Shown one piece after another: positions 4,592 to 61,320 of a stretch of 64,000 bases of DNA. A program made the translations under genes and the position numbers. Source of the DNA: Pseudovirgaria hyperparasitica (lineage: Eukaryota). Positions within the stretch are counted from its first letter, which is position 1. Each line of letters starts with the position of its first letter. The stretch lies in the NCBI GenBank assembly GCA_010093815.1, contig ML996571.1; one strand, given 5' to 3'. Under the pieces are notes generated by a model that worked only from the letters and a program-made list of their open reading frames with translations, was not told the DNA's origin and ran no database searches.

Positions 4592-5087
4592 CATCCGTAT
4601 ATCCATAGTTGCATGGGAAAGCTTGGCGCCCGATGTTCGCCGTGTCACCAACACACACGATTTAGTATAATCGACATTTTTATCTATTACTACTATAGTA
4701 TACTTATATAGTATCTATAACTATATAGTATAGTATTAAAGAGGTAGTATAACTAATATATAGTACTATTAACCCCTAATACCTCCCCTATATCTATCTA
4801 GAGTACCTTTAAATATAGAGGTATATACCTAGCTAGACGTAAGAATATCTCTATATAACTACTCTTTTTTTATAGTTTTAGAGGTATTATAGATAATATA
4901 AAGTAATATAAAGGCTATAGAGATATAATAAGGATTATATAGAACTAATATTTAGTAATATTTAGTACTATATAAGTATTATACGGCGGTAATAGATAAA
5001 AATGTCGATTATACTAAATCGTGTGTGTTGGTGACACGGCGAACATCGGGCGCCAAGCTTTCCCATGCAACTATGGATATACGGATG
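4592..5087. mobile_element. MITE / non-autonomous TIR element, 496 bp, perfect 99-bp TIRs
   Basis: 4592-4690 is the exact reverse complement of 4989-5087 (CATCCGTATATCC...). The interior is AT/TpA-rich. No clean TSD (cggtt / cggat). Confidence 0.9.
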
Positions 5088-32400: not shown

Positions 32401-35250
32401 TCCCGGGTTCTACCGCTCCGTAGGTTTCTATAGAGAAGTTTATAGCTATAAGGCGCGCTATATAGAATTTATAGTATTGGAACGAAAGGCTAGAGACTTA
32501 TGTTATAAAGCTCTATACTATACTAAATAAGAACTAGCGGAAGGAATTAGATGTAACTGTTAGGGCTAACACTAGGATGGACTCAACTAGAACACTATGG
32601 TCTAGTACGGTCCGTGATAGGTGGACCCAGGGTAAGCTAGCTAGAATAAGCGAGACCACTATATAAGTAGGCCGTATATACTTAATTCCTACTCTTTAGG
32701 AATTAACCTTATTAAGAGAGTAGACTACCCTTTTAAATATATTCCCGAATCCTCCTATGACCTATTAGACTACTATCCTATATCTATAATCCTTATATTT
32801 TAATTCCTCTTTATATAGCACGACGGTAGTTTATAGAAATAGCTCTAACTACTCGTTATAACACCCGTCGCACCGCCTCTTATAGTAGACCTTCTCCTAA
32901 CCTAAACGAGGAGAATAGTCTACCTATAACTACCCCTACTAATAACTATATCTTATAGGCTATCGCACTAATAACTCGTACGATATTCCGTGTAACTATA
33001 GAAGATATTATAGAATATAAGGATAGAGTCTATTATACTCTATCTTAGTCTAGTTCGAACTATACTAGACCTAACCTTAACACAAGGCTAGACCTTATTA
33101 ATATTAATAAGTTAATCCGTTAGAGTCGCCTAATATTAACTATACCTTATAACGACGTGTATACTAGACTACACGAAGAGAGGTAATAATAGGTTTAACT
33201 TAAGTAATAACTATATAAACTCGACGAAGCTTAAGAACGTACTACGAGACTTAAAGCTATATTACGCGCTTTAGTTCTAGTAATGACTAATCTATATTTA
33301 TATAGACCTATACTAACTAAAACGATCTATCCTAGTCTACTACTATCCTAATTACTCTAACCTAAGAAACTACCTTACTTCAATAGTAAAAGTAGAAAGA
33401 GTTTCCACGTATAGACTTACTAATATAGCCGATTCTTCTATCTATTTACGAACGATAGCGATAAAATTAGATTCGCCTAGAACTACCTTAATCTAATGCC
33501 TTTAGAACGTTAGATGGTATACTAAATTAAATATCCTAAGGATGCCTATAACTAGGACACGTTCACCAAATTTCTCCTCTAATATTTTAGCGATAGAGCT
33601 AAACGACGCGACTAGGCCTAGGGCTATATCTTTAAGACTCGATAACGAGATAATTAGTTACCGTTATAACTTCTTAAATACCTTCGGCCCCTCTAGAGAG
33701 AAGCCGAAGAAGATTATATAATTTAATAGTACGACGACTTTAAACGGTCCCTCGCCCTAAATATAAAGGACCGTCTTAATCTTATAATAATAATCTCTAT
33801 AGACCTCTAAGCTCTTATAAACCTCGCGGAGCGATACTAGTATATAATAAATAATTAATACCGCGCTAGTGCACGACTATCCCTAATGATCTAATCTAAT
33901 ATAAAATCGTCTAACTAAAACCGATTTAGTAATAGATCTCGCGGGACGTTATAAGGCTACTACTATACCTTAAATTTAAAACCACGCGGATCGTATCGTG
34001 GATCTCCCTACTAATTAATATATTAAGATATAAGGACCGACTCGTATAAACGACCTAAAGTCACTTACTACACCTATAGTAGAATAGACTATATAGCACC
34101 TAAGTGCCGTTTAGGGAAGCTACCGAGTGCTAATATAACTAACTAACTAGTTATATACTATAAGTGCTAGTAGCTAGGACACATCGCGCCTAACTACCTA
34201 GTATAGAATATAAAAAACTAATAGCCTACGAGAAACCCTCGCGACTTATAGATATAACTATAATAGAGGGGTAATCCGCTAAATAGTATATTAAACTATA
34301 GGCTAGACCCATTAAGGTCCCTCGTGGATAATATTAGACTATAATACTCGATAGTAGATCGGCTACTAACGTCATGTCGACCTAACGAGCACGAGAACTT
34401 AACGCCGATATCCAAGCTCTAATAGATACTATGTTCCATGGTATCGACGGTCCTATTAAGTTATACGGCACCTATACTATTAAATACGGCATCTAGAATA
34501 GCGGAGGGAAATAGAAACTCTACTACTTAACCTTCATCGTGGTAGATAGTCTCTTTAATATGATTCTAGGTATACCGTAGCTTAAGAAATATAATCTAAA
34601 ACTAGACTTCCTTAAGAAGATAGCTAGCTAGCGTATAAACCCACCTTAATGGGAACTAGTATAGCTTATCGACGACGAATAATTCTAGAAAGATTATAAG
34701 AAGGCGATCTCTACTATCTACGTGCTCTTACTTACGTAAAATAGCGAGCTTAGTATTAAAGTGGACGAAAACCTACTATATTAGTATAAAATATACTAAT
34801 ATATCGTGTTAGCGATCGATTTCTCCGAACTACCTTAATACTAATCTACTAACCTTACTATTAATCTTAAAGACGGCTAGTAACCTCTATATAGACCTAT
34901 CTACCCTCTTTTAGAACCTAAGTTATAAGCCCTTCGAGAATATATCGAAAAGAACCTTACGCGAGGATAGATTAGGCCTAGTATATCCCTAGCCGGAGCT
35001 CTAATCCTCTTTATAAAGAAGAAGGATAGGAGCCTCCGTCTATATATCGACTACTATAGCCTAAATAATATCACGCAAAAGAATCGTTATCTACTACCTC
35101 TTATCTCCGAGTCTATCGATAGACTAGAACGCGTAAAGATCTTTACTAAGCTCGATCTATATAATATCTACTATCGCCTTCGTATTAAGGAAGGCGACGA
35201 ATAGAAAACGGCTTTTAGAACCCGTTATAGATACTTTAAGTATACCGTGG

Positions 35251-35390
35251 TATAAGAAGGCGGGCTCCACGTACCAACCAACTACACTAAAAGGACCGAA
35301 TCTTGAAGCTACTACTTTAAGGGTAGAGCACACTGCTTATATACGACTGCTATACACATGTATAATCAACTGGCAGGCACGTGCCTAACA
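35251..35390. mobile_element. 140-bp solo LTR of a third family inserted in the C1 RT
   Basis: T(A)TAAG...CCTAACA ends and 5-bp TSD CGTGG (35246-35250 / 35391-35395). Absent from C2, and accounts for the 145-bp length difference between C1 (8155) and C2 (8010). Confidence 0.88.
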
Positions 35391-38300
35391 CGTGGTCCCT
35401 TTTAGACTAACTAACGCGCTAGGTACCTTCTAAGCGTACATTAATAACGCGCTAGTAGGCCTACTTAACACGACATGTATCGTGTACCTAGATAATATCC
35501 TTATCTTCTTAGATAATAAGGAGGAGTATATCTAGCACGTACGTGTAGTCCTAGATAGGCTAGAAAAGTATAAGCTATATATTAAGCTATCCAAATGCGA
35601 GTTCCATTAGGACTATATTAACTTTCTTAGCTTCGTTATTACTAATTAAGGTATAACCATAGAGAGAGATAGAGTTACTACTATTATAGACTGGCCTAAA
35701 CTAAAATCCGTTCGAGATATACGTGTCTTTATTAGCTTTACTAACTACTACCGAAAATTTATTAAACACTTCTCCCGTTTAGCCGCACCACTTAATACGC
35801 GCACTACTACTACCGACTCGTCTATTACGGTCCATGGTAGATAGAAACAGCGTAATATTAAATTATAATCTATTAAATTAACTAAGGTCGAAAGAACATC
35901 CTTCGAGAAGATTAAAGAAGTATTTATAACCGCCCTATTACTAGTATACTTCGATCTAACCAAACCTATTTACGTCGAAACTAATATATTAGGATTTATA
36001 ATCTCGGGTATACTCTCCTAGCCTAGACTAATAGAGTCTAAAAAGGTCTAATAGTATCTAGTTACGTTCTTCTCGCGTAAGATAGCCGACGTTAAGACTA
36101 GATATACTATTTATAACTAAGAGCTACTAGTAATAGTAGAGTCGTTTAAGTAGTGGCGATATTATCTTAAAGGTACCATATATAATATTAAGTTACTAAT
36201 TAATTACTATAACTTAAAGGGGTTTATAAGCACGATAGTTTTAAATCGTCGATAGGTTCGATAGGCTAAGTAGCTTATAAATTTCTACTTTATAATCTAC
36301 TATCGATCTAGAAGTATAAACCTAGCTAATAGAATATTAAGAAGACCTAACTATAAAGAAGGCGCCTAGGATTATAGTAGCCATAGGGTCCTAGAGTAGC
36401 TATAGGCCTAACTCTTAAGGACGAGGTTAGATAATAAGTTATCTAATAATTAGCGAGATGCTAACGCCGATGCCAGTAATTAAATTTATAAGACTAAAGC
36501 CGGTAACTAAAGACGCGGTACCGAAGTCTCTAGCGAGCCATTTATCGGCGCTGTTAGGGAGGGTAATAGTATCCAGCGTGTATATTAAGTAGACCTTGCC
36601 TAGTTAATTATAGATCTATAAAAGATAGACCCGATAGTTTTAAAGTTACGTAAAATATAGTAAGATAGGTTATTATAGACCGAAGTAGACTATAAGTGGA
36701 CCTTCGTGGACGGCTTACTCTACTATAATAGAAAGTACTATATACCGATAGGTAACGCACGATTTACCGTAGTTAGCCGATACCATAACGCTAACCTAGT
36801 AGAATATTTCGGGTATATACGCACCCTAAGCTCGATTTATTAGTACTATTTTTAGGAAGATATATCTAAGTACGTCGAAGAATAGATAGCTACTTATCCG
36901 ATTTATTAAAGAATAAAGGTACCTAGGCATAAGCCATATCGGAACTTATAGCCTCTACTAGTCCCCCTCTTTATATAGAAAGATATTACTATAGATTTTA
37001 TAGTTAACTTACCTCTAAGCGAGATACTTAGAATAAGTTATAATTTAATTCTTATTATCGTGGATAGACTTATAAAGATATCTAGGTACATCCCTATATA
37101 GAAGACAATCACATTAAAAGAACTAGCATAAGTATTCTAGAATAAGATTATTAAGGTCCATAGTATACTAAAAAGGATCATTACGAACCGAGGGAGTATA
37201 TTCACGTCTAAATTCTAGACGTTATTCTACAAAATAGCCAGTATAAATAGAAACATATTAATAGCATTCCATCTATAAACAGATAGTTAGATAGAGCGAT
37301 AGAACCAAACACTCGAGGCCTACCTTCATACATTCTATAATTTCGAATAAGACAACTAGGCCTCTCTACTAAGTATAGTAGAATTCGCGTATAATAATAG
37401 TCGTTATAGTATAATAGGTGTTACGCCCTTCTAGGCGAACCTAGGACGTAGTCTAAGGATAGGTTTCGAACCTTATACGGTCTAGTTCGACCGAACGATA
37501 GATGTTAACGTCTATACGTAGGAACTAGCGATTAAAATCTTTAAAACCGTACATAACTATCGCGCAATAATCCAGCAAGCGAATAAGTCGTATATAAAGT
37601 ACTATAATAGATTAGTTAAAGATTAAGCGTACGAGGAGGGAGACGAAGTCCTCCTTAATATCTATAATATATAAATATCGCGAGTAAATAAAAAGCTCGA
37701 TTATAAAATGGCTGGTCCCTTCCGAATTAAACGTCGCATTAGTATAAGAGCCTATAAGCTCGACCTAGGAAACGATATAAAAGTCTATAACGTATTCCAC
37801 GTCTTATTACTTAAAAGGTTTCGACCTAACGTGTATAAACGCACGAACGTGTAATTACACTCTATTATACTCTAAGATAGACTAGACGTGTACGAAGTGG
37901 ACTATATTATTAAATATAGGCTTAATAAGAACGGTGTCTAAAAGTATTAAATCCGTTAGAAGAACTACACCGAGGATAAGAACACCTAGGAACCTATAGT
38001 ATATATCTTAAGTACCGCGATAGCTATATATAAATAGAGGTTATAGGATAATACGTTACTACCGTAAACCTAGCGCCGTCGGGGCCGTCGTAAAAAGAAG
38101 AAGGATACCGTGGAGAACGAAGTGTCGAATTACGAATCCCAAACGCACACTAGGAAAACTCTATAAGGCAGCCCTATAATTTAAGCGATACACGGTTACT
38201 AAACGCGAAGAAAACGTAAATAACCATTATAGGCACGCGACGCGATATATTATAATAGAATAACATAGAGAAGTCTAGAATAGACTAATATAGACTATTA

Positions 38301-38681
38301 TACACGAGAAGAACATAGGACTAAGAAACTAAAAAGGTACTCTACTACGGAATTAAACTCGTTATATATAATATAAAAGGTTAGAGTACCCGAACTAATA
38401 ACTACTAGGCTACTAGTTCGGGTGCTCTAATATAATTTAGAGAGATAAACTAATTTATATACGATGCCTATACTTAAGTAACTTAAAGGAAATTAGAACC
38501 TAAAATTTAATAGTTATAGAATAAATAAGAACGTATATAATATTATTAAGTTAAGAATTAAATTACTAGAAAACTAGTAGATGGGTATCTAAACGGTCTA
38601 AAAAGGACCAAAACGGATAGAAACTAGGTAGATAGAGCTAATACACACCACATAGAAACCCTAGTAAACAGAGCTATAGAG

Positions 38682-39985
38682 CTACTCCTCTATCTTATTA
38701 TTACTCTTAGAGCGTAGTAAACGAACTAACCGAGTAATAGAGCGACGGAGGTTAGAGACTTATTCTCTAGAGTAACCACGCGCTCGGTTAGAGCCTAGTA
38801 AGACGATGACTAAGCGCTAGAGCGGAGCGACTAGACCTAAAGTTAGCTAACGCGGTCTAGAATAATCTAGAATAGAATATATACCCTCTTATAAGGTAAC
38901 TTAGAAGGAGAACTAGTAGATCTCTTACGAGACCCGTTAGTAGTATAAGGTAGGCGGGAAGAAATAGCACGAATCTCTTCTACGGCCTTAGTAGCTAAAA
39001 CCGACTCCCTAGAATAGGTAGCCTAAGCGCTAGGAATCTCGCAGCGACTAAAAATTATAAGCTAAGGTTAATAATAATTAACGGTTTCTAAACTTACACT
39101 TTAATAACCTCTAGAAAGAGCTTATAGCGCTCCCTAAACTCCCTACGTATAGAAGCTAGATAACTACTAGAACCGCCGAGAGTCTCACGGACGCAAAGAT
39201 CGTTATATATATCTTATATATAAATAGGAACCTAAAAACGCATTAGTATAGACGACTTTAGATTACCCTAGACTAAAATAGCCTAATAGACTTACCTAAA
39301 GATAAACTTTACCGAGGACGGTATAGCGGCGGTAGCGGGTAGGGAGCTTAAAGATTAGGCGTATAGGCCTATCGCGGTTAGTAGAGTAGTAGCTAATACT
39401 AGAGTTAGAGCGGAAGAGATATTTAGAGCTAGTAGCGTGAGCCTTAATATACTTAAAGTATATTAAACCGTAGTTTACCGTTTTTCTATAGCGTAAACCG
39501 CGACTACGTTTAGTATCTTCAGCGACCTAGGCCTTATTATTACTAGGGCTAGGTTTAGAGCGAATATTAAGGTCCTAAAAGAATCTAGAGCGACTAAGTT
39601 AGTCTATATTAGACCGAAAAGAGGAACGGCGTTTAGAGCGAGGCGGCGAAGGCGTGAACTCTCGATTATCGTCTATAACGAGATCTTCTTTATTCTCTAA
39701 AGGAGATAGAGTAGATAGGCGGCGCGAGTAGGTATAGATAGGCTTTATAGCCACCTCTTCCGTAACACTAGTACTAGGATTACCTAGATTAGAGCGACTA
39801 GTGGCCACGTTAGTAGTAATAGTAGTAGTAGCCTTAGCTACCTTCTTCTCTAACTTAGAGCGCGCCTTTATACTACTATAATAAGTGGATTTTTTAGCCG
39901 GTATGGCCGGGGTAGAGGTAATCTCTTTAGAGCGAGTCTTATAAGAGAAGGAGATAGACTTAGAAATAGGACTAGTATTAGATAT
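38682..39985 (-). pseudogene. Antisense spliced accessory gene of C1 (~380 aa); exons 39985-39296, 39231-39098, 39047-38885, 38836-38682
   Basis: GTAAGT/GTAAGT/GTATAT donors and TAG acceptors, with CTAAT/CTAAC branch points in introns 1 and 3. De-RIP CFKC-x18-C-x17-CRRC-x6-CLQ|VP. C-terminal heptads. Exon 4 has a 1-nt deletion relative to C2. Confidence 0.75.
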
Positions 39986-41418
39986 CTATATATATACGTT
40001 AGCTAGAGATCTAAGAGTAGAATACTCGTTTAGCCTTAAAGGCGATTAAAGAAGCTAAATTAGTAACCATAATAACGCGAATAGATTATATAGGACCAGC
40101 TCTAATAAAAATAGACTACTCTAGACCCGAATAGATCTAAACTAAAGGAGATAGTATACGAATTAACGACTTACCTTAAGAGTAAGATAGATATACTAGA
40201 GAAGAAAATTCAGAATAAGAGAACTAAATATAAGCTTAGTTAATATAGCGGTTATATAACCCGCGGAGCTATCTCTAAGGTAGTAGCTATAAAGTAAGGG
40301 ATAAGCGCGTATATAAATAAAAGTAAACTAGAGCTTAAGTTTACTAATATAAAGACTATTAATAACGTTATATAGATTTAATTAGATGCGCGTATAAATA
40401 TAACGCTTATAGAATTATAGATTTATATATAGCTAAGTACTTCGGGGCGAAGCATAAAAAGAAGAAGAATATTATTAGGGCTAACACTAGGATAGACTTA
40501 ACTAGAATACTATAGTCTAGTACGGTCCGTAATAGGTGGACCTAGGGTAAGCCAGCTAGAATAAGCGAGACCACTATATAAGTAGGCCGTATATACTTAA
40601 TTCCTACTCTTTAGGAATCAACCTTATTAAGAGAGTAGACTACCCTTTTAAATATATTCCCGAATCCTCCTATGACCTGTTAGACTACTATCCTACGTCT
40701 ATAATCCTTATAGTAACTATCGCGGTAATTAGTACTTCTACTCCTACTCCGACTTAATTAGTTTAGATCTATACTAATTAGTACTAATATATCTCTTTTA
40801 TCTAGCGTTTTTAGTTTTTTAGTTTTAATTTTAAAGCGATCTTACTTCTTCTAGATAGATTAGTACGAGTTTATATAGATCTATATAGATCTTTATATTT
40901 TCTTTTAGCTTTCTTAATTTTATCTTTCTTTAATAATAACTTCTTTAATCTCTTTAGTAATCTATACCGATCTATACCAATCAGCACCGATTTTCGATGT
41001 CCATTTCTCTTAGTAAATCATTTTTCTAAGTCTCTTTTTTAGTTAAATTTTTTAAAGTTCTAAGTTCGAACTTTCTAAGGAAGTTCCTTAATTCCTTAGA
41101 ATATTTTAAAGATCTATATCTCTTTTACCTTCTTCCTTTTAGGTAGCCGTCCTCGGTACCAAACTATACTAAAAAACGTTGAATTACCGTACTTTAGTAT
41201 AATTCTCTACGATTCCACGGCTTCCTTTACTAATCGCTACTTATATACTAATATCGCTACTTTACTAATGTTTATTATAGGTTCCCAAGTATCTTTATTA
41301 GAATTATATTCTTTCTAATAAATTTTATATAGCTACGTGCTATCTTCGGCGTGTTACTAGCTAAGTATCTACTTAACTTCGTAGATATCTATACCTTCTT
41401 ACATAACTACTTTATATA

Positions 41419-44400
41419 ATAATAATAATAATATTGTATAACTAGGTAGAGTAGTACTCTACAGGCCTATGCCTCCTCTAGTCTAAGCCACTATATAAGA
41501 AGAAACCCCATAGGGAAAAACTTCCTTATATCTATAACTATATCTCGTTAAACCTCTATTTCGTCTTAAGTATATAGCTATAGAGTACGCCTATTAGCCT
41601 ATAGCCTATATTACCGTTATTTTACCCTTAGGTAGCACGTGTAGGTGCGGAGGTTATTAGTTAAGGGCTGCCCTTAACTAATAATCGGGGTTCTCCCGGG
41701 GTTCTTCCGGTATATATTAGGTTACTACCGGCGTATACCGGGTCTCTTCCGGCATATATTTCTAGGTCCACTAGTACTAGAGGAGTAGTAGATGTATAAG
41801 CATCCATTAGGAGACGTCCTTAGGATACTTATTAAGCTATCGTACGATATCTAAAGTCTTTATAACATAGATAAGCTATTACCGTTATATATGGAGGTTA
41901 GGGTATATAGCTAGATAGTAGTGTATTATACCTCTCCGGCCGTACGCCTTATACCATAGGGAGGTATTAGGAACGCCTCTCTTATAGATATAGTATAGAA
42001 GTCCCATGGCGCCCGTTCGGGCTTAGATAAGTATAGATGCTTAGGCTTTCGTTAGCCCTTTATATATCTATTTACTCGGTTCCTTCTATGGCCCTCGAAT
42101 CTACTCTAGGTACCTATCCTACTAGGAGGTCTAGTGGGTACGGAGTGCCTCTTTCTACTTATCTTAAGTCCACGACCGTATATTTTTCACGAGTTCTAGA
42201 AGGCTCTACCGGTCTAGGAGAGCGTCCGGGTTATCTCGGACTTCTTATACTACTTAGCTAGAGTCGGCTTCTATTAAGCACCTATACCATATTCGATTCC
42301 GGCCTATATATAGGAGTGCGCGGTAATATATACTAATTCGTGCTCGTAGCGCGGCGAAAGTATGTTCTGCGTTTCCTATACGTTCCTATGCTTATTATTT
42401 AGTGAAGTATACCACCCTCTATATCTAGTAGAAGTTATGTATACTTATAACGTCTGTCTCGCGTCGTAGTAGCACCATGTTAGTAGCTTTATATACGCCT
42501 AATATAAGACGGAGTATACGGTTCTATATAGATTCGAGCTTCATTCGCCTAGTCTATATAAGGGCCGTATACTAGTACTCGTGTCCGTACATGAAGGCGG
42601 GTCGTGCTATAGATATATATAGCTGGCGTGCCTTATCCCGGGCGGTTCCCTATATAGAGGCTATAATCCGTCGTATAGCGGCTTCTACCCGGAGGGCCCT
42701 AGAGACGGCGTATACCACTTATAGTCCCTATTTAAGCTTACTATCTAGTATGACTCCGAGCGCGCGCATGCTTTATACTAGTAGTTTATTAAATGCGTCG
42801 ATTCGGGGGCGTCGTTCGCCTTCCCTAGTTACCTATTTCCCTTAACGATTAATAAAGTGCATGAGTTAGTATTTCTCCGGGGCGAACTTTACTCCGTGGC
42901 GTTTTACCTACTAGAGATACCTCTCGTGGTTCTATTCTAGTCGTCTACACGTTCTATTAGTATTATTATCGATGGCTAGGAGGTATATATTATCGGCGTA
43001 TCCGACTACCTCTATATACTTTATTCCTTAAAGAAGGTCTACTATAAAGAAGAGGAATAGGATCGGAGAGATGGTGCTCCCTTATAGGATGCCGCATGCC
43101 GTCTCTTTATATTCGCTCTGGTACCTAGGGATATATATCTAAGTTATTCTTCCTGTAAGGAATGACTATATAAAGCGTGTAATCCATTCTAGTATTCGTC
43201 TTATCCGGAGGTTATAAATAAGTCTTATATGGTTTACCTTGTTAAACGCTCCGGCCATATCGAGGGAGAGGAGCGATACTACCCGTCCCTATTTCTATAC
43301 GGCCTAGACGACTTCGATAATATATTAGATAGCTATTATTAGGGAGCTATCTACCTTTACCTTCTAGTTCGGAGGGAGGAGATTATATTCCTATACCGCG
43401 GTACTTATCTTCTTCGCTATCGTAGCCTCTAGTATCTTATCTAGGTAGGAGAGAAGGGCGATTAGTCTCCATCCCTTTAGGGAGTTAGGGCTCTTTCCTA
43501 GCTTCGGGAGCATGATAGTATAGGCGACTTAGAAGCTCTAGGGGTGGTACCCCTACGTGACGCATACTTAGAATATATAAGTAATAAGTGGTAGGGTCGC
43601 TTTTATAGTGCTTTTTAGGCATCGATTTAGAATTCCATCTAGTCCGGGTGCTTTATCATTTAGGAGTGTCTTAATAATATTAAGTATGTCCTCCTCCGTA
43701 ACTTCTTTAGGGATATCTACCGCGTATAGATATTCGGCGCCGTGAACGTCTAATAGGTCTACTAGTTCCGGGAGAGGGAACATGGCCTCCCATAGGGCCT
43801 TAGTTTTCTTAAGGCCCGTGGAGTATGTTCTCCCCTAATATATTAGGGGAGGTATAAGTGGCGGGGGTGTCGGAGTGTCTACGCCCTTGGCCCATTTCGC
43901 CATGCGCTATAGCCCTATTACGTGTCGTGTCTATTAACTAGTAATTATACGCTACTATTTACGCCTTTCGTTACGGAGGACTTTATCGCGTTATCGTATC
44001 GCTTCCTTCTATTCTTCCCACGACTCGGGTATTCTCGTACGGTATACGCGTCTATATAGCCTTCGGGCGTCTTATCTACTTTCCTATACTTAAGGAATCC
44101 CCTTTACTTCCGGGGGCCGGTATATTTAGTATAGTACATGTTTATTTCTCGCATTCTAGTATATTTATAGGAGTATCTATACGGCCTAGTCTATGGCTAG
44201 GTCGTTAGATACATCGACTATAGAGGGATCTAGAATCGCCGATTCCAGGTCCTTCAGGTACTTTTCCTAGTCGGTATCCTTCTATATCCATCGTCCCCGT
44301 TATTTATTCGGGGTATACACGTTTATTATAGTTTCTATATATTCGTGGTCGGAATCCGTCTATACCTAGCCTAGGCGGTAGTATTAGATCCGGTGACTAA

Positions 44401-46700
44401 TATGCTCCGTGGTAAAGGTAAGGTCAAGCGTAGACCCGTCTTTATCCTATTTATGTTTTTTCTATATAACTTATTCTATAGGTGTAAGTAGGTATAGGAA
44501 GTCGTGGTAGTAGGTGCGTAGTTCCCTTACTCTAAGTTCTTCCCTAACCACGGCTAGGCCTCCCTACCATCGGTAGTAGAGGTTAAAGTCTCCTAGGAGG
44601 ATGTGTTACTCTAGTTCCGTGGTACCCTCGAGCATCTCGTCTAGTGTAAGTACACGTTATTAGTTATATATGTTATATATATATAGGGGGCCTATATCTA
44701 TTTATAGGTATAGTGTTATCCTAAGGTTATCGCGCTCGGTATATAACCATAATAAGAGTAGTATTAACCTATAAATATGGAAGAGGACTCGTCTTTCTAG
44801 TCCTAGAGGGTATATAGTATAGTATCCGGGGTGTGTGGTTGGTTTGCTCGTCTAGTAGTATTTATAGGGTTCCTAGATGGCGAGTATTATGGCCCCGGTC
44901 TCTTCGAGGAGCGTCGCCTGGTTCTCTCTTTTATATTATATGTTTACCTATATAATTCGGAGTATATTCTAGTCCCTCATTAGGTACTAGGGAGTATATA
45001 TACCTATATACTTATTCCTTAGAGGCGCGACTGTCCTCGCGCGGCAGCGGCTTTAACTATGCCTTTTAGTCATCCCATCGTCTTCGGAATAGTCTACTAT
45101 CCCGCCTAACTACCTTCCGGAGGGGAGGTTAGGGGTGTTATAAAGGAAGGGCTCGTGGTAGGTGTTATATTCTATAACTATCTCGCGTCTCTCGCTTTTA
45201 TCGTGCGAATGTATTCTATAACCTATTTGCGTTTTATGCACGTTGACGACCACGACGGGTGTTTCCCATCGCAGTTTAAACACTATACTATATCCCTATT
45301 TCTTAGTCCGTCTCCTCGCGGTTCATAAGGGCACTCCTAGATAGCGTGGTCCCCACGGTACTATCCGCACTTAGTCTTCTATAAGTACCTTTGTATAGTA
45401 TGTCCATACCCTTAACAGTTAAAGCACTATATTATTACCTATGCCCTATCCTATGGCTCGGCCATAAGGAGCTCTTCTTCTATTAGGAATCCCTCCTATA
45501 TAATGCGTTATACGAGGGCGGGGTCTCGGAGCTCTATAATTATAGTAGAGTGTTTTTTCGCCGTCGTCTTAATCGCCTATAGGTTCTTCTACCACGCTTT
45601 CACGATCTTAATCCCTAGGTATTTTCGCGTATTAGATTGTTCTATACGCGTAATATCCTCCGCTCCGATAGCCTATCCCCGCATAGGTACTACGTATACT
45701 ATAATCGGGTATATAGCTACCCTAATAGACGCGCTGGGGAAGATACTACCTATCGCGTTCGGATCTCGTGAGATGTTTTACTATATAGTATTCGTTATAG
45801 TAGTAAGTACTACCCTACCTAGCGTAACTTTAGTAGCCACGACGCTTAACTACATTCCTTTCTATTCGTTAATCTTATTTATAATTTCCTTTAGGGATGC
45901 CCGTTAGACCTATGCCAGCGTGTCCTTATCCTAGATTATGATACGTATACTATATACTCTATCTATGGTCCTAGTAGTCCTTAGTACGGTGGCTCCGGGT
46001 GTTACTATAATCTAAGCCCACGTGTTAGGGCGCTTACCTTAGAATAGCTCTTCCTAGATTCTCCGTAGGCTAGCTTCCATTCGGTCGAGCCTACTACTAG
46101 GTTCCTCTTATGGCGACTTCCTTTCTTCCTCCGTAATTCCTCTTAGGTTCCGGATAAGGTCCCGGAATATATAAAGAAGGGTCTTCTTTCCCTCCTCGGC
46201 GTCCCTCTCTATACATATTACCTAGTATTTAATTTTATCTAGGAGGGTCTCCCCTCTCGGGGTCCCCTCGGTCTAGGTTATCTATAGCGCTTCGCACCCT
46301 TAGTTAGTTCCTATATTTTAGATAGGTGTCTAGCTATCCACATTAATATCGCTATATAGCCGTTTCTACTATACTAGTAGGGGCATATCCGGCGTATGCC
46401 GGGGTATTATAATGCCTAAGGCCGCCATGGTTATTAGTTAAGGGTAGCCCTTAACTAATAAAAGGGGGTCGGCGTGTCGGCGTTTATTAGATATGGTCTA
46501 TACTCGTGTTATTAAAGAGTCTTCGAGCGTATATATATAGTATCTCTATACGTCCGTATCGTCGTGTATTATATACTATACGTACGCACGTGTGTCGGAG
46601 GTTGTTATACTCGGTATACTCTATCGTTTAATGTATATAAATCGCTGTTTTACCCCGAATTGACCAGTTTAGTCCGTTGGGGTGTAAGAAGTTTTTTTTA
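41419..46700 (-). mobile_element. Tad/CgT1-like LINE (RIP-inactivated): ORF1 ~46428-44980, ORF2 (EN-RT) ~44980-41790
   Basis: TSD AACTACTTTATATA (41405-41418 / 46701-46714; the boundary blends with the tail). (ATT)n 3' tail. De-RIP ORF1 QCFNCQGYGH (~45400-45430). RT KAPGLDGI.NRCLK in ORF 43568-43783. Confidence 0.9.
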
Positions 46701-47221
46701 AACTACTTTATATAGTATCTATTTAGAATAATCCGGTAATAATAAGGTATGAAATAGCTCGAGAAGCGTAATATAGAATATATTATATATCTTTAACATA
46801 GGAGGGAGTTATAACTCGTACGCCTAGTTATTAATTACACGAGTAATCTTATATAGACCTATTATCATATAGTTAAGCTTCTTCTTTAGCCTAATACTAC
46901 AAATATTCTTACTATTTAGTAAAACTTTATCCCTAACATTAAAGATTATAGGTTTTCTACCCTTATTATAGTGCGATTTACTATAATTCGTAGTATCTTA
47001 TAGTAACTTTATAACGCTTCTTTACGTTTAGAATAGTTCTATAGTAATTTCTATTACTTTAATGTTAGGTCGTTCTACTTTAAACTAAGTCCCTAAGAAC
47101 TATATATTATAGTTCCGACCGAAGTTTACTCCGAATAGACTTACGTAGGTTAACGTATATCGGCTGTTATTATACGCGAATTCCGTAACATAGACTAACC
47201 TTACCTAGTTATCCTACTTAT

Positions 47222-50200
47222 TGTCAGGGCTGACACTAGGATAGACTCAACTAGAATACTATGGTCTAGTACGGTCCGTGACAGGTAGACCTAGGGTAAG
47301 TTAGCTAGAATAAGCGAGACTACTATATAAGTAGGCCGTATATACTTGATTTCTACTCTTTAGAAATTAACCTCGTTAGGAGAGTAGACTACCCTTTTAA
47401 ATATATTCCCGAATCCTCCTATAACCTATTAGACTACTATCCTACGTCTATAATTCTTATATTTTAATTCCTCTTTATATAGCACGACGGTAGTTTATAG
47501 AAATGGCTCTAACTACTCGTTATAATACTCGTGGTACCGCCTCTTATAGTAGACCTTCTCCTAACCTAAACGAGGAGAATAGTCTACCTATAACTACCCC
47601 TACTAATAACTATACCTTATAGGCTATCGCACTAATAACTCGTACGATATTCCGTGTAACTATAGAAGATATTATAGAACACGAGGATAGAGTCTATTAT
47701 ACTCTATCTTGGTCTAGTTCGAACTATATTAGACCTAACCTTAATATAAGGCTAGACCTTATTAATGTTAACGAGTTAATCCGTTAGAATCGCCTAACGT
47801 TAACCACACCTTATAATAATATATATACTAGACTACACGAAGAGAGGTAATGATAGGTTTAACTTAAGTAATAACTACACGAACTCGACAAAGCTTAAGA
47901 ACGCACTACGAGACTTAAAGCTATATTACACGCTTTAGTTCTAGTAACGACTAATCTATATTTATATAGACCTATACTAACTAAAACGATCTATCCTAGT
48001 CTACTACTATCCTAATTACCCCGATCTAAGAAACTATCTTACTTCGATGGTAAAAGTAGAAAGAGTTTCCACGTATAGGCTTACTAATATAGCTAATTCT
48101 TCTATCTATTCACGAACGATAGCGATAAAATTAGATTCGCCTAGAACTACCTCGACCCGACGCCTTTAGAACGTTAGATGGTATACTAAATCGAACATCC
48201 TAAGGATGCCTATAACTAGGACACGTTCACCGAATTTCTCCTCTAATATTTTAGCGATAGGGCTAAACGACGCGACTAGGCCTAGGGCTATATCTTCGAG
48301 ACTTGATAACGAGATAATTAGTTACCGTTATAACTTCTTAAATACCTTTAGCCCCTCTAGAGAGAAGCCGAAGAAGATTATATAATTCGATAGTACGACG
48401 ACTTTAAACGGTCCCTTACCCTAAATATAAAGGACTATCTCGACCTTATAACGATAATCTCTATAGATCTCTAAGCTCTTATAAACCTCGTAGAGCGATA
48501 CTAGCGTATAATAAATAATTAACGCCGCGCTAGTATACGACTATCCCTAATAATCTAATCTAATGTAAAATCGTCTAACTAAAACCGATTTAGTAATAGA
48601 TCTCGCGGGACGTTATAAGGCTACTACCACGTCTCGAATTCAAAACCACACGGATCGTATCGTGGATCTCCCTACTAATCGATATATTAAGATATAAGGA
48701 CCGACTCGCATAAATAACCTAAAGTCACTTACTATACCTATAGTAGAATAGACTATATAGCACCTAAGTACCGTTCGGGGAAGCTACTAAGTGCTAATAT
48801 AACTAACTAACTAGTCATATACTATAAGTACTAGTAGCTAGGATACATCGCGCCTAACTACCTAGCATAGAATATAAAAAACTAATAGTCTATAAGAAAC
48901 CCTCGCGACTTATAGGCGCGACTATAATAGAGGGGTAATCCGTTAAATAGTATATCGAACTATAGGCTAGACCTATCGAGGTCTCTCGTGGATAACATTA
49001 GACCGTAATACTTAATAGCGGTTTAGCTACTAACGTTATATTAACTTAATAAGTATAAGAACTTAACGTCGACATTCAAGTACTAATAGATGCCACCTTC
49101 TATAGTATCGATAGTCCTATTAAATCATAGGGTACCTATACTATTAAATATAGCATCTAGGACAGCGGGGGGAAGTGGAAACCCTACTACTTAACCTTTA
49201 TCGTGGTAGATAGTCCCTTTAATATGATCCTCGGTATACTATAGCTCGAAAAATATAACCCGAAACTAGACTTCATCTAGAAAACAGCTGGCTAGCGTAT
49301 ATACCTACTATAATAGAACCTAGTATAGCTAGTTAACGACGAATAATTCTAGAAGGACTACGAAAAGGTAATCTCCGCTATCTACGTTCTCTTACTTACT
49401 TAAAATAGAGAGCTTAGTATTAAAGTAGATGAAAACCTACTATATTAGTATAAAATATACTAATATATCGCGTTAGTGATTAACTCGTCCGAATTACCTT
49501 AATACTAACCTACTAACCTTACTATTAACCTCGAAGACGGTTAATAACCCCTATACGGACCTATCTACCCTCTATTAGAACCCGAGCTATAGGTCCTCCG
49601 AGAATACATCGAAAAGAACCTTATATAAGGATAGATTAGGCCTAGTATATCCCTAGCCGGAGCTCTAATCCTCTTTATAAAGAAGAAGGATAGGAGTCTC
49701 TATCTATATATCGACTACCGTAGCCTAAATAATATCACGCGAAAGAATCGTTACCTACTATCTCTTATCTCCGAGTCTATTAATAGACTAGGGCGCGCGA
49801 AGATCTTTACTAAGCTCGATCTATGTAACGCCTACTACCGCCTACGTATTAAGAAGGGCGATAAGTAGAAAACGGCGTTTAGGACCCGTTATAGATACTT
49901 CGAGTATATAGTAGTCCCTTATAGACTAACTAACGCGCTAGGAACCTTCTAAGCGTACATTAATAACGCGCTAGTAGGCCTACTTGACACGACGTGCATC
50001 GTATACCTTAATAACATCCTTATCTTCTCTAATAATAAAGAAGAATACATCTAGCACGTACGCGCAGTCCTAGATAGGCTAGAAAAATATAAGCTATATA
50101 TTAAGCTATCTAAATACGAGTTCCACTAGGACCACGTTAACTTCCTTAGCTTTATTATTACTAATTAAGGTATAACCATAGAAAGGGATAGGGTCGCTAC

Positions 50201-53200: not shown

Positions 53201-55231
53201 CTACTCCTCTATCTTATTATTACTCTTAGAGTATAGTAAACGAACCAACCGAGTAATAGAGCGACGGAGGTTAGAGACCTTATCCTCTAGAGTAACTACG
53301 TGCTTAGTTAGAGTCTAGTAAGACGACGACTAAGCGCTAGAGTAGAGTAACTAGACCTAAAGTTAGCTAACACGGTCTAGAATAATCTAGAATAGAATAT
53401 ATACTCTCTTACGAGGCGACTTAGAGGGAGAAATAGTAGACCTCTTATAAGATCCGTTAGTAGCGCGAGACGGACAGGGGGGGATAGAGTGAATCCTCTC
53501 TACGGCCTCTATAGCTAGGATAGACTCCCTAGAATAGGTAGTCTAGGCGCTAGGGATCTCGCGGCGGCTAGAAAAATCAATAGGTGTTAAAAATAATTAA
53601 CGTACTCGTAACTTATACTTTAATAACCTCTAGGAAGAGCTTATAGCGCTCCCTAAACTCCCTCTATATAGTAGGCAGGCGGCTATAAGGACCCCCGAGG
53701 GTCTCACGGACGCGAAGGTCGTTATATATATCTTATATATATATAGGAACCTAAGAATGTATTAGCGCGGACCACTTTAGATTACACTAGATTAAGATAG
53801 CCTATTATACTTACCTATAGATAAGTCTTACTAGTTACGGTATAGCGGCGGCAGCGGGTAGGGAGCTTAAAGATTAGGCGTATAGGCCCATCGCGGTTAG
53901 TAGAGTAGTAGCTAATACTAGAGTTAGAGCGGAAGAGATATTTAGAGCCGGTGGCGTAAGCCTTAATATACTTAAAGTATATTAAACTGTAGTTCGCCGT
54001 TTTCCTATGGCGTAAACCGCGACCACGTTTAGTATCTTTAGCGACCTAGGCCTTATTATTACTAGGGCTAGGTTTAGAGCGAATATTAAGGTCCTAAAAG
54101 AACCTAGAGCGACTAAGTCGGTCTATATTAGACCGAAAAGAGGAACGGTGTTTAGAGCGAGGCGGCGAAGGCGTAAACTCTCGATTATCGTCTACGATAA
54201 GATCTTCTTTATCCTCTAAAGGAGGTAGAGTAGATAGACGGCGCGAGTAGGTGTAGATAGGCTTTATAGCTATCTCTTCCGTAACACTAGTACTAGAATC
54301 ACCTAGATTAGAGCGACTAGTGGCCACGTTAGTAATAATAGTAGTAGTAGCCTTAGCTACCTTCTTCTCTAACTTAGAGCGCGCCTTTACACTACTACGA
54401 TAAGTGGATTTTTTAGCCGGTATAGCTAGGGTAGAGATAATTCCTTTAGAGCGAGTCTTACGAGAGGAGGAGGCAGGCTTAGAAATAGAACTAGTATTAG
54501 ATATCTATACATACACGTTAGCTAGAGATCTAAGAGTAGAATACTCGTTTAGCCTTAAAGGCGATTAAAGAAGCTAAATTAGTGACCGTAATAACGCGAA
54601 TGGATTATATAGGACTAGCTCTAACGAAAATGGACCACTCTAGACCCGAACGGATCTAAACTAAAGGAGATAGTATATAAATTAACGACTTACCTTAAGA
54701 GTAAGGTGGATATACTAGAGAAGAAAATTTAGAATAAGAGAACTAAATATAAGCTTAGTTAATATAGTAGTCATATAACCCACGGAGCTATCTCTAAGGC
54801 AGTAGCTATAAAGTAAGGGATGAGCGCGTGTATAAATAAAAGTAAACTAGTACTTAAGTTTACCGATATAAAGACTATTAATAACATTATATAGATTTAA
54901 TTAGATACGCGTATAAATATAACGCTTATAGAATTACGGATTTATATATAGCTAAGTGCTTTAGGGCGAAGCATAAAAAGAAAAAGGATATTATTAGGGC
55001 TAATACTAGGATAGACTTAACTAGAATACTATGGTCTAGTACGGTCCGTGATAGGTGGACCTAGGGTAAGTTAGCTAGAATAAGCGAGACCACTATATAA
55101 GTAGGCCGTATATACTTGATTCCTACTCTTTAGGAATTAACCTCGTTAGGAGAGTAGACTACCCTTTTAAATATATTCCCGAATCCTCCTATGACCTATT
55201 AGACTACTATCCTACGTCTATAATTCTTATA
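47222..55231 (+). mobile_element. Ty3/gypsy chromovirus family C, copy C2; LTRs 47222-47461 and 54992-55231
   Basis: LTR begins TGTCAGGGCTGACAC, TSD CTTAT (47217-47221 / 55232-55236). Colinear with C1. Inserted in the B integrase. Confidence 0.95.
53201..54504 (-). pseudogene. Antisense spliced accessory gene of C2
   Basis: Colinear with 38682-39985. Retains a TGC Cys codon at ~53851-53853 and an in-frame last exon (VVTLEDKVS.LRRS..RLVRLL). Confidence 0.75.
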
Positions 55232-55871
55232 CTTATAGTTATAATATACGCGTAAATACGCCTTAACTATCTAATTCTACCGCTCCGTCTATCTATCTAT
55301 TTATAGATAGAACGTAGTACTAAGTTTCCACTTAATTCCTAGTATATAGTAGAAATCCTTCTAAAATTTAGACGTTATCTACGGACCTCTATCCGAAACT
55401 ATACCATTCGGTATACTATAGAGCCGGACTACGTCACGGAGTAGTATATCTATAAGATCCGGTGCTTAGATTATCTTTCTTATAGGGATATAGTATAATA
55501 TCTTCGTAAATCTATCTAGAACTATAAGTAAACTATTATAAATATATCTAGAATACTTACTTAGGGGTAGATCTATAATGAAATCTATCGATAATTCCTT
55601 CTATGCCTCCTTTAGCATAGGTAATAGCCTTAATTCACTATATGGTAAGTGTCTATATACTTTTATATACTAGTAAACGTTATACGTTTTTACGTAGTCT
55701 TTTATATATTTATAAAGACCCGGCTAGTCATACGTCCTTCGGATTAAATTAACCGTCCTTATAACGCTGAAGTACTCTACTAACGCGTAATCGTGCTATT
55801 CCCTTAAAATATTAATTTATAAGCCGCCTTCCGGCACGTAGAGTCGGCCTTAGAAGTAGATCGCGTCTAAT

Positions 55872-59000: not shown

Positions 59001-61008
59001 CTCTCGAGCCTAATTCGCGACGTATTTCTAAAGTTTAGCGATAGTTTATTATAATACCTCGCGTAGCTCCGCCACGACTCGTTATCTAGCTTTATATTAT
59101 TAGAAGTTACTTAGCGTATCTACTATTTCTTCGTCTAAAAGCTCCGTGATTTAGTCTAATATTTCTACTTCTCGGTTAGAAACGGCTAGGATTAATACTA
59201 ATTATAGAGGATCCCTATTATTTAATATAGTATTACTTATCCCTATAGTAGATCGTGTCGACCTTCTTGGTTCTAGTTAGACTATCTTAACTATAGTACT
59301 ATATAGGGAGTAATTTAAATATAAGAATAGGGTTATTAGATAGTAGTATAGTTAGATAGAATAATAGAGTATATTCTATTATAGAACGAATTACTACCGA
59401 ACCCTTTCGGTAGGAATCCGAGAGTATATATATAAAGGGACGCCGATCTATCTAGCACGTGACTATTTACCGCCCTTCACGTCACCTTCTAACCCTGTTA
59501 GCTAAGATATATATAGGTCGGGTCCTACCTAAGGCTAAGTCCTAATAGATAAGGTTAGTTACTTTATCCTTAACGGAGTAAGTAATAATACTAGGGCCGT
59601 AGAACTCCTCTCTTAAGCTCTTCCTAGAGTAAGTAAGTTCTTATAGCTTTACTACTTCCTATACACTCTTAATCTTATTGCCTAGTCTCTACTTTTTAGT
59701 AAAGATAAGGACACCTTTAATAACCTATCTAAGGACCTTATTACGGAGCTTACCTTCCTATAAGAGTGGCGGAAAATAGGACTAATTATGGTACTATAGT
59801 TAATTATTACGTTTATCTATCGCTTAGCTAAGAGACGATAGAAATTTATTACTATATAGAAGCGATAGTATAATAAGAACGCGATTACTTTAGGTACGAA
59901 CTTTACTCCTACTAAGCTTATTAAGCTAGTTAAGATATACTAGAATAGCTACTACGACTTTATAGAGCGTGGCCTTAAGCTCCGAGCCGCGATTAATAAG
60001 TATATAGAGAAATTCCTCTTCTAGTAGACGTATTGGAGTAGCACCCGGATAGTAGTTAATATAGATATCTTTATAGATAATAGAGACGGAGATTCCGATA
60101 ATAAAGACGTTAATTTAATAAATAAGACTCTATTATTTATTACGGAAAGTGGACTTAACGGCTACGACTAGAGTATTATCCGGATATATACTAATACCTT
60201 ATTACTAATTAAAGAGGTATTACTATAAAGCGAGGGACGAGGCTATAAAACTAATTTTAGAGTAATCTAGTAAGTACTTCCTTTAATATGTTACCTAGAG
60301 AACTACTTTAATAACCTTAAGGTTTCTAAATCCACGCCTTATATACTAGCTAATAAGGTTTAACTAAATCCACCACTTAAGGACTACTTATAGATAGTAA
60401 TTAATAACGCGAAGGTAAAGCTAGCGAAGTATTATAACTTAGTAAAGCTAAACCCGCTATATTATAGTAGAACTTATCTCTATCCTTTATAGAAGAACTT
60501 CTTTAAATAGGATAAGGAGAAGTTTACTAGATTATATCTATAGAAGACTATTAACTAGCTAGAACTCGACTTCCTAGCCCTTTAGTAGACGTATAAATCT
60601 CCGAGACCCTCCTCACCGTTATATATACCTCTATCTTATATATAATCTCTAAAAATACCTCTCTTGAGCTCTCTAATAGGCGAATACCTAAATAAAATAA
60701 AGTTAATTAGCTAAAGAAGATAAGAGAAGGATAAACTTAGCCGCTATTGTCGACTCGATAGTAAGTTTAACTATAATAACCCTATTAAGTAGTGGTTAGA
60801 TCGGAAATTATAGTTTCTACGGCTTTATAAGATAGTAATTAATATTCTATCTATACTAGCCTTAACCTATAACGACGAGTGAACGTTTAGCGAGGCTAGA
60901 GATATAATTATACTAAGAAGAAGTAAGATAAGCCCGATTCTAATTAGATAACTATAGGATCTTAAGAGTTAGTAGAGATATAACCTTATTACGGACTAGG
61001 AGATTATA

Positions 61009-61320
61009 TAAGGCTAACGTAAAAGTATACTCGTAAGTTTCTCTACGGATTTAAACGATTTAGCTAATATAGAGATAGACTATATAGATATATAGACGTG
61101 GACGTGGTAAAATTTAATATATTAACTTAAATAGGCGAAAATCGAGTATATATATAACCTTATTATGGACGGCGTACTTACGTAAGGCTAACGTAAAAGT
61201 ATACTCGTGAGTTTCTCTACGGATTCGAACGATTTAGCTAATATAGAGATAGGCTATATAGATATACGGACGTGGACATGGTAAAATTTAATATATTAAC
61301 TTAAATAGGCGAAAATCGAG
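61009..61320 (+). repeat. Direct duplication (~138 bp, period 174 bp) in the hAT 3' region
   Basis: taaggctaacgtaaaagtatactcg...ggcgaaaatcgag at 61009-61146 and 61183-61320. Confidence 0.9.

Follow-up and report, generated by a model that had tools for sequence, protein, structure and literature searches.

The window analysed here, a stretch of 64,000 nucleotides of contig ML996571.1 of Pseudovirgaria hyperparasitica (assembly GCA_010093815.1), carries two copies of a Ty3/gypsy chromovirus, C1 and C2, both with the plus strand as sense strand, and in each of them the minus strand between the end of pol and the 3' long terminal repeat (LTR) holds the remains of a spliced gene (Table 1). Both elements have been degraded by repeat-induced point mutation (RIP), and it is highly likely that the two antisense features are RIP-inactivated copies of an accessory gene that truly belongs to this chromovirus lineage. 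Read with X at stop codons, the C1 plus strand matches the Pfam families RVT_1 (E 1.1e-10), RT_RNaseH_2 (1.3e-16), RT_RNaseH, Integrase_H2C2, SH3_Tf2-1 (2.1e-13) and Chromo (7.9e-4), and the defining features of a chromovirus are all present, namely an LTR pair with target duplication, a polypurine tract, the reverse transcriptase-RNase H-integrase order and a C-terminal chromodomain. Because C1 and C2 each have their own target duplication they are independent insertions and not a segmental duplicate, and the accessory module has therefore spread through retrotransposition. The gap from pol end to 3' LTR is ~2.37 kb in C1. The 29-64 kb part of the window, in which both copies lie, is AT-rich (GC 0.29-0.44) and TA-laden, like RIP-mutated fungal repeats.

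In both copies the minus strand between pol and the polypurine tract is organized as four exons and three introns, with the C1 exons at 38682-39985 between two tracts, one at the pol end near 38100 and the other at 40455. On the opposite strand and between the pol end and the 3' LTR, the gene has the position of an antisense additional open reading frame (aORF-3R; see below). The intron donors are of fungal type, with GTAAGT used twice and GTATAT, the RIP product of GTATGT, once, and they are accompanied by branch-like sequences (ACTAAT and GCTAAC) and YAG ends; intron 2 is 49 nt long in C2. If intron 3 is read through, 3 stops are met in 16 codons. C1 exon 1 starts with ATA, a possible RIPed ATG, and ends with CTT TAG before GTAAGT, and intron 1 begins exactly two codons past the sixth codon of a six-cysteine module. 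Spliced C2 comprises 1143 nt or 381 codons, with the frame held to a terminal TAG and 9 internal stops, all TAA or TAG; C1 exon 4 is one base shorter than that of C2 and is frameshifted there. The predicted protein is strongly basic (K+R 18-20%). An earlier note on this DNA had proposed a four-exon minus-strand structure between chromodomain and 3' LTR, with 48-64-nt introns in phases 0/2/0 that keep one reading frame, a product of ~380 aa, and an extra GTAAGT donor upstream at 40174. The coordinates and exons proved to be exactly as it claimed, C2 is open apart from the nine RIP-type stops over 380 codons plus stop, and the upstream donor is present in both copies.

Table 1. Coordinates of the antisense gene, its host elements and its two closest intact relatives (L003 and L066, numbered on their own loci).
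Feature	Position	Strand	Details
C1 exon 1	39985-39296	-	230 codons; S/T/K/R-rich N-terminal part, then six-Cys module
C1 six-Cys module	39302-39460	-	codons 176, 179, 199/200, 218, 221, 228; all TAT/TAC in C1
C1 intron 1	39295-39232	-	64 nt, phase 0; GTAAGT...ACTAAT...TTTTTAG
C1 exon 2	39231-39098	-	134 nt
C1 intron 2	39097-39048	-	50 nt, phase 2
C1 exon 3	39047-38885	-	163 nt; basic K/R patch at its end
C1 intron 3	38884-38837	-	48 nt, phase 0; GTATAT...GCTAAC TTTAG
C1 exon 4	38836-38682	-	heptad-repeat (coiled-coil-like) end
Extra upstream GTAAGT	40169-40174	-	both copies; possible donor of an intron in the 5' untranslated region
C2 accessory gene	53201-54504	-	exons 54504-53815, 53750-53617, 53567-53405, 53356-53201
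Lone surviving TGC (Cys codon 218) in C2	53851-53853	-	
L066 antisense gene	6844-6551, 6479-6343, 6295-6154, 6102-5902		257 aa; introns 71, 47, 51 nt
L003 antisense gene	4748-4482, 4402-4206, 4133-3923, 3864-3679		286 aa; introns 79, 72, 58 nt
Element C1	32558-40712	+	RIP-degraded full-length Ty3/gypsy chromovirus, 8155 bp; LTR pair, target duplication, Pfam
C1 LTRs	32558-32797 and 40473-40712		240 bp each
C1 target duplication	32553-32557 and 40713-40717		5 bp, GTAAC
C1 pol	34302-38100	+	reverse transcriptase, RNase H, integrase, SH3, chromodomain; stops read as X; Pfam
Polypurine tract adjoining C1 3' LTR	40455-40471	+	
Element C2	47222-55231	+	8010 bp, independent insertion; LTR pair, target duplication
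C2 LTRs	47222-47461 and 54992-55231		
C2 target duplication	47217-47221 and 55232-55236		5 bp, CTTAT

RIP changes ATG to ATA, TGG to TAG and CAR to TAR, and makes no transversions. The translations of the gene in C1 and C2 are without any M, W or Q because saturating RIP acts on these codons, and since it converts Gln and Trp codons to stops, the 9-11 stops present are the expected residue of a normal content of these two amino acids. Codon 129 is a TAA stop in C1 and CGA in C2, and codon 165 encodes Tyr in C1 and is CAT in C2. The six-cysteine module now reads Y-x2-Y-x19(or 18)-Y-x17(or 18)-Y-x2-Y-x6-Y, and the 380-codon translation contains just two [YC]xx[YC] pairs, both within the proposed cluster. 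The earlier note had reported a single TGC surviving in C2, which is found at codon 218, the other five candidate Cys codons being TAT or TAC in both copies; of the x18/x17 spacing that it gave, the second spacer stands as x17 (or 18), while the first reads x19 (or 18). Its view of the TAT/TAC codons as RIPed Cys codons accords with TAT being the RIP product of TGT and with the relatives described below, in four of which (L003, L066, L026 and L006) cysteines coincide with the module positions. Both window copies are dead, with all Gln and Trp codons turned to stops, Met to Ile, and Cys to Tyr (five of six in C2 and six of six in C1).

Pyrimidine-rich DNA mutated by RIP could conceivably produce an open frame with introns by chance: the minus strand is rich in T and C here, the 35-kb RIP zone contains GTAAGT 18 times on that strand, and the plus-strand frame in register with exon 1 is itself fairly open (8-9 stops per 229 codons), so that the choice of strand needs further evidence. 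Exon 1, however, is an extreme outlier, among the most open frames of the entire RIP zone, with 3 stops (C1) and 2 stops (C2) per 229 codons against a median of 20 and a minimum within pol of 5, as counted over 66,805 windows of 229 codons in the six frames of 29000-64000. The signature [YC]xx[YC]x5-6[YC] with a GT donor two codons further on is likewise confined to the two real sites among 98 half-motifs in the six frames of this zone, and relatives carry intact orthologous genes, and we regard a chance origin as extremely improbable. A codon-usage score trained on pol favoured the minus-strand frame of the gene model for exon 1 of C1 and C2 alike and gave no decision for exons 2-4, and a test for TGA in frame does not discriminate, TGA being rare in every frame after RIP.

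A comparison of C1 with C2 over 38000-40480 shows 231 transitions, 34 transversions and 2 one-base indels. Introns 1 and 2 together contain 13 transversions in 114 nt, and all exons together 13 in 1142 nt, with the exonic ones at third (7), first (5) and second (1) codon positions. The suggestion that introns 1 and 2 are strongly diverged with their splice sites kept is upheld as to the divergence, but the G of the intron 2 donor is replaced by A in C2 and most genomic copies, a caveat on conserved splicing. These transversions are moreover all confined to 38913-39317, and a recombinant segment may therefore confound the contrast of introns and exons.

Un-RIPed relatives carry the gene intact. 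A total of 64 pol homologues was found, 15 of which were aligned (alignment A2), and JGI metagenome contigs were scanned with A2, giving 624 confirmed stretches from which 75 loci (L numbers) were kept. The pattern C-x2-C-x5-25-C-x5-45-C-x2-C-x5-8-C occurs over these whole loci 22 times antisense to pol and twice in sense, several of the 24 matches being overlapping hits in Cys-rich junk frames (L009, L051, L060), and in 12 loci it lies 281-1245 nt beyond the pol end. Where at least 1000 nt follow the pol end, as they do in 51 cases (17 further pol ends have too little sequence to judge), the full motif within 2.6 kb is antisense in 10 and sense in 0. Nine loci have the canonical Zn2Cys6 spacing (L016, L018, L020, L013, L034, L008, L056, L029 and L038), which in the first three is C-x2-C-x6-C-x9-C-x2-C-x6-C, and the spacing is wider in L003, L066, L026 and L006, with L006 being intermediate (x11 and x8).

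The loci nearest to C1 and C2 by pol, L003 and L066 (36% identity despite RIP), both contain intact antisense genes with an ATG start, a stop at the end, GT..AG introns with CTGAC or CTAAT branches, and the same intron phases, 0/2/0, as in the window. After their motif, C-x2-C...C...C-x2-C-x5/6-C, come two codons and then a GT donor, and this succession of sixth Cys codon, two codons and donor is present in four of the four intron-bearing relatives examined (L003, L066, L026, L006). The junction reads TGT TTG GCC GTAAGT in L003, TAT CTT TAG GTAAGT in C1 and TAT CTA TAG GTAAGT in C2, a match which is the strongest single argument for the Tyr codons of the window having been Cys and for the gene being orthologous. 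The earlier note would have abandoned its proposal had relatives lacked a homolog; the genes of L003 and L066 instead bear out a spliced antisense accessory gene that combines an expanded cluster of six RIP-converted cysteines with a coiled coil at the C-terminus. That this is a real gene of the element is accordingly in very little doubt. The version of the window clade has larger loops, contains three introns and is extended at the N-terminus by a long basic stretch, of 175 codons before the first Cys in the window versus 22-100 in relatives. In L003 the ATG at 4748 lies ~650 nt before the following gag open reading frame (from 5394), with room for an LTR and leader only.

The gene is co-inherited with pol. 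A FastTree phylogeny of pol was built from a query-anchored alignment of 68 of 77 sequences, nine with <60% coverage being dropped, and groups C1, C2, L003 and L066 with support 0.996, with L001, L004, L006 and L026 joining at 0.982; two further clades comprise the canonical intronless types (0.999) and a third type together with its split-motif kin (1.0). In this third chromovirus clade the motif is divided (L017 4744-5718, L019 3822-4250, L041 5949-6356, L023 and L009) into two C-x2-C-x6-C halves in different frames ~110 nt apart, as seen at the pol ends of L009, L017 and L023, which suggests an intron between the halves that is placed unlike those of the window clade.

The intronless versions in other chromovirus clades are under purifying selection. 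Among L016, L018 and L020 the ratio of nonsynonymous to synonymous substitution rates (dN/dS) of the antisense frame is 0.10, 0.11 and 0.07, and in the five other frames of the same DNA it is 0.14-5.11, the lowest belonging, as expected, to the in-register opposite frame. Scored against 8000 candidates, a profile of seven intronless frames (A4) recovers 282 proteins at E<=0.001. Within the best 120 of these 282 matches, many are on contigs of retrotransposon size (~6-8 kb), none has a precomputed Pfam domain, and those with names are a 'hypothetical protein' of Sporormia fimetaria and of Hortaea werneckii and five JGI entries called 'galactokinase'.

The module is also abundant in the organism itself. 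Contig pieces from two DNA runs of one sample of the same organism (X1 and X2) cover 38000-40500 in 30 of 30 bins, with 6903 pieces in X1 and 2481 in X2, and since all bins are covered by thousands of pieces the module is part of a high-copy family, although the summed depth of contigs is no copy number. Departures of these contigs from the window are almost exclusively transitions, found at 148 places in X1, where transversions are found at 4. Two runs of another sample under the same species label contain next to nothing of this interval. Presence in most family copies and conservation, which also characterize an aORF-3R, are seen here in the contig coverage, in both window copies and in the dN/dS of the relatives.

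The polypurine 17-mer is doubled, with 94% identical copies at 38091-38107 (the pol end) and at 40455-40471 that bracket a module of 2.36 kb. Two contigs skip the module, joining 38076 or 38085 to 40454 with merely 20-22 letters on the shorter side, and these joints coincide with the two bracketing 17-mers, which suggests that a module-less form exists, or that the module was gained or lost by recombination or template switching at the tract. A module flanked in this way and skipped in contigs of the same organism, encoding a protein that has a DNA-binding-domain-like part only and no large middle domain of host factors, might be a captured fragment of a host Zn2Cys6 factor carried as a neutral passenger. 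This is very unlikely, however, given that the gene has been retained in at least three chromovirus clades (supports 0.982-1.0) with dN/dS near 0.1, and that intron positions are conserved though the sequences have diverged past recognition. An ancient capture of the gene is possible; that it is a neutral passenger is not.

The protein is best described, on present sequence comparisons, as a putative small zinc-cluster and coiled-coil type whose layout is related to Gal4-type DNA-binding domains. Zn2Cys6 domains follow the spacing rule C-x2-C-x6-C-x5-12-C-x2-C-x6-8-C, which the nine canonical relatives in other clades satisfy and the window (x2, x19/18, x17/18, x2, x6) does not. The Zn_clus HMM (hidden Markov model; PF00172) has no match in the window at E<=10, and among relatives it gives 11.9-17 bits in 5 of 20 frames scanned (gathering score 21) and E<=1 in 19 of 127 family members (best 1.7e-4). 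Zn_clus is the sole recurring DNA-binding family, sub-threshold in every match with a known score. The description 'Zn2Cys6-like' given by the earlier note marks at most a resemblance, given the spacing and HMM results of the window itself and the sub-threshold matches of the relatives with canonical spacing. A sequence profile search of the PDB returned 21 matches at E<=10, none significant, of which seven are Zn2Cys6 domains (GAL4 three times, LAC9, LEU3, Pho7 and SPAC27B12.11c) aligned on the Cys region.

Structure predictions were made for the canonical L034 protein, for which the AlphaFold2 model has a mean predicted local distance difference test (pLDDT) of 81, with an 80-residue helix and two short helices, one starting at each C-x2-C pair. 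The ten best PDB rows in a Foldseek search with L034 are all Zn2Cys6-DNA complexes, with E>=0.47 throughout. A homodimer model of residues 25-150 scores 0.44, with 0.00 for the best of 3 controls, and passes a mark attained by 21 of 30 proteins solved as one-chain pairs and 0 of 23 solved as single chains; this pass may reflect likeness, because coiled-coil dimers abound among solved structures. Runs share at least 88% of contacts, with partner pLDDT of at least 74, and the contacts follow a heptad pattern in which residue i meets residue ~194-i around a centre near residue 97, and the predicted helix pair is therefore antiparallel. The expanded-type protein gives a low-confidence fold (pLDDT 42). 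The L034 gene lies at 5377-5952 of its locus, and groups A and B have a common C-terminal ...GSS end. A basic leucine zipper (bZIP) reading of exons 3-4, for which a basic N-x7-R region ahead of the zipper would be diagnostic, was not supported, these exons having no Pfam match at E<=10 in either copy.

Zinc binding via the six cysteines is probable on this evidence, and a function as a DNA-binding transcriptional regulator comes close to an even prospect. A different use of the module is conceivable, in which the gene is real and its expanded form is a zinc ribbon or knuckle for RNA or protein; the product would then be no transcription factor but would assist the particle, integration or the evasion of silencing as a cofactor. 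The spacers in the window clade, of 16-19 and 17-31 residues, are such as a canonical binuclear cluster does not tolerate, exon 1 of L003, L066 and the window has no HMM match, and the basic composition with a long low-complexity region recalls nucleic-acid chaperones. On the other side, the spacings form a series from canonical (L016, L018, L020, L013, L034) through intermediate (L006) to expanded, the place and strand of the gene are constant across sister chromovirus clades, and the structural neighbours of canonical members are Zn2Cys6 DNA-binding domains only, though weakly so; we therefore consider the ribbon or knuckle unlikely.

Searches with the protein of the window itself, translated with X at stops, were negative. 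No exon of either copy matches Pfam at E<=10, phmmer with C2 exon 1 found nothing among 1.84 billion representative proteins, a word-indexed search of longer proteins with exons 3-4 gave no match, and a metagenome scan with the exon-1 alignment gave 595 pattern matches of which 0 were confirmed. For the stop-free 76-residue part, ESM Atlas scores were 0.75-0.86, under the level of a lead, and nothing is drawn from them. As the RIPed pol is still recognized (E 1e-16), either the accessory protein evolves fast or RIP has erased its diagnostic cysteines.

Several observations weigh against an orthologous accessory gene with a zinc cluster in C1 and C2. The best tblastn match of the two spliced translations to the 75 chromovirus loci has E 0.06, BLASTP of the window translation against the L003 and L066 models gives E 0.35-0.7 at best, and BLASTP of L003 against L066 gives E 0.49; with no detectable protein similarity, the case for homology is built on the pol tree and on shared position, strand, Cys pattern, and intron positions and phases. 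Gene models for L003 and L066 were made by visual inspection, no start codon survives in either window copy, and the window spacers between Cys2 and Cys3 and between Cys3 and Cys4 are far beyond the limits of the Zn2Cys6 family. The extra base of exon 4 that characterizes C2 accounts for 2110 of 15660 summed depth in X1 and 1212 of 7741 in X2, such that the shorter, frameshifted C1 state is the commoner among genomic contigs, and many copies may therefore have borne a broken gene before RIP.

From the protein layout and the place adjoining the 3' LTR we infer a regulatory role and a promoter of the gene's own. In the mechanism that we propose, the intact gene would have encoded a basic protein of ~380 residues with an S/T/K/R-rich N-terminus, a six-Cys zinc module, a basic patch and an amphipathic heptad helix, and would have been transcribed from a promoter of its own located at the 3' LTR or immediately inward of it. 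The introns would outlast retrotransposition since they lie antisense to the genomic RNA. The protein may enter the nucleus and dimerise via the helix, with the zinc module binding DNA as in a minimal Gal4-type factor, and could then regulate the LTR of the element or host genes. More broadly, an old and large set of fungal chromoviruses would encode an antisense minimal Gal4-type factor that dimerises and binds LTR or host promoters, its gene being interrupted in some clades by introns which could be maintained only in antisense orientation. The family is undescribed as such, has no Pfam domain and has its members annotated as hypothetical proteins; this wider proposal is put forward tentatively.

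LTR retrotransposons are usually considered dependent on host transcription factors, and the lineage described here seems to bring its own regulator. Were this so, an element with its own dimeric, sequence-specific factor of the dominant fungal class could itself control its bursts and sense conditions, could compete with the silencing of the host, and could spread binding sites and factor together through the genome, either as a self-contained regulatory switch or by rewiring host genes at landing sites. The gene is also a clear example from nature of a retroelement whose introns are retained thanks to antisense placement, and of a real gene recovered from RIP wreckage through synteny and intron phase with sequence similarity gone. 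Several hundred 'hypothetical proteins' could be annotated as retrotransposon and not host genes, and the interest resides in the gene family and not in the two dead copies.

The surroundings of the gene include a hairpin at 38381-38430, with 20-nt arms that are 90% complementary and a 10-nt loop, where the 3' ends of pol and the antisense gene meet; its arms are present and less RIPed in C2, and it could be a terminator shared by the two genes. Beyond the stop of the antisense gene, the C1 minus strand retains un-RIPed TG dinucleotides at 38640-38660 (ATG TGG TGT), several of which read A in C2 and in other genomic copies, forming a small low-RIP pocket. A perfect 15-nt inverted repeat (38021-38035 and 40421-40435) was considered as transposon ends and rejected; it is a RIP coincidence, since it is not common to C2. 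Within the reverse transcriptase region, 145 bases at 35230-35380 are found in C1 only and are seemingly GC-richer and less RIPed than their flanks. The 6.5-kb spacer between C1 and C2 (40713-47221) is less AT-rich (GC 0.41-0.44) and has plus-strand frames with few stops at 42432-43118, 43581-44267 and 45110-45796, and probably represents a gene or a further mobile element with fewer mutations. A run of 225 N lies shortly downstream of C2 (55872-56096), and a 174-bp tandem unit is present in two copies, 90% identical, at 60971-61318.

Gal4-type factors (PF00172; GAL4, PPR1, HAP1, LEU3, PUT3 and Pho7) are the only recurring neighbours of the intronless relatives in sequence and fold, and have the same layout, with two C-x2-C-x6-C halves, a linker and a dimerising helix. 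In Gal4-type domains the two short helices of the cluster surround two zinc ions, and the DNA targets are half-sites of CGG type. The element proteins differ from them in being tiny (165-290 aa), in having no middle homology domain, and in known scores that are sub-threshold, and the spacers of the window clade are 2-3 times too long. The Gal4 coiled coil is parallel, whereas the predicted L034 dimer is antiparallel. Element-encoded nuclear factors include HTLV-1 HBZ, a bZIP protein with a dimerising zipper from a spliced antisense transcript that starts in the 3' LTR, and VANC of the plant VANDAL elements, an anti-silencing protein of a DNA transposon. The likeness to the proposed factor would be an analogy of logic only, hosts and protein families being unrelated.

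Plant elements with an aORF-3R belong mostly to non-chromovirus lineages. Retand is described as such in PMC11963269. Additional antisense genes in the interval from pol to the 3' LTR are described for plants and for the fungal element Boty in the passages available from PMC7264820, PMC8365987, PMC4227169 and PMC5987419. The plant aORF-3R, found in maize Grande, rice RIRE2, Silene Retand and Phaseolus PvRetro13, have the place and orientation of the gene described here, occur in most copies of a family and are thought to be important to the element; they differ in their plant hosts and in that the passages of PMC7264820 report no Zn2Cys6-type module for them, and they are not known to be related to it in sequence.

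A close parallel in place and host is brtn of Boty, an antisense gene between pol and the 3' LTR that is cited to Zhao et al. 2011, Virology 417:248 (in passages of PMC8365987, PMC7264820 and PMC4227169), and in view of it the earlier note goes too far in stating that canonical fungal Ty3/gypsy elements encode nothing beyond gag-pol. Like the element described here, Boty is a fungal Ty3/gypsy element with a chromodomain in its gag-pol (PMC4227169) and an additional antisense gene, counted among the aORFs between pol and 3' LTR (PMC7264820), and the present gene might simply be a member of the brtn family of Boty (Botrytis, Sclerotinia), with its novelty limited to a RIPed copy. Yet no named protein among the best 120 of the 282 A4 matches is called BRTN, the phmmer search with exon 1 found no match, and the brtn passages speak of neither a zinc cluster nor an intron nor a coiled coil, with 'zinc' appearing 0 times in the text available from PMC8365987; we think membership of the brtn family possible and rather doubtful. 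The zinc cluster, introns and coiled coil would set the present gene apart, with brtn compared by description only, and the family spans several chromovirus clades with named members in the Dothideomycetes (Sporormia, Hortaea). A full-text literature search for a zinc-cluster gene in fungal LTR retrotransposons found none, with most subscription journals outside its coverage, which makes it weak evidence of absence. Antisense accessory genes are thus a kind already known from plants and Boty, and the form with a zinc cluster and a coiled coil appears, as far as brtn can be compared by its description, to be new.

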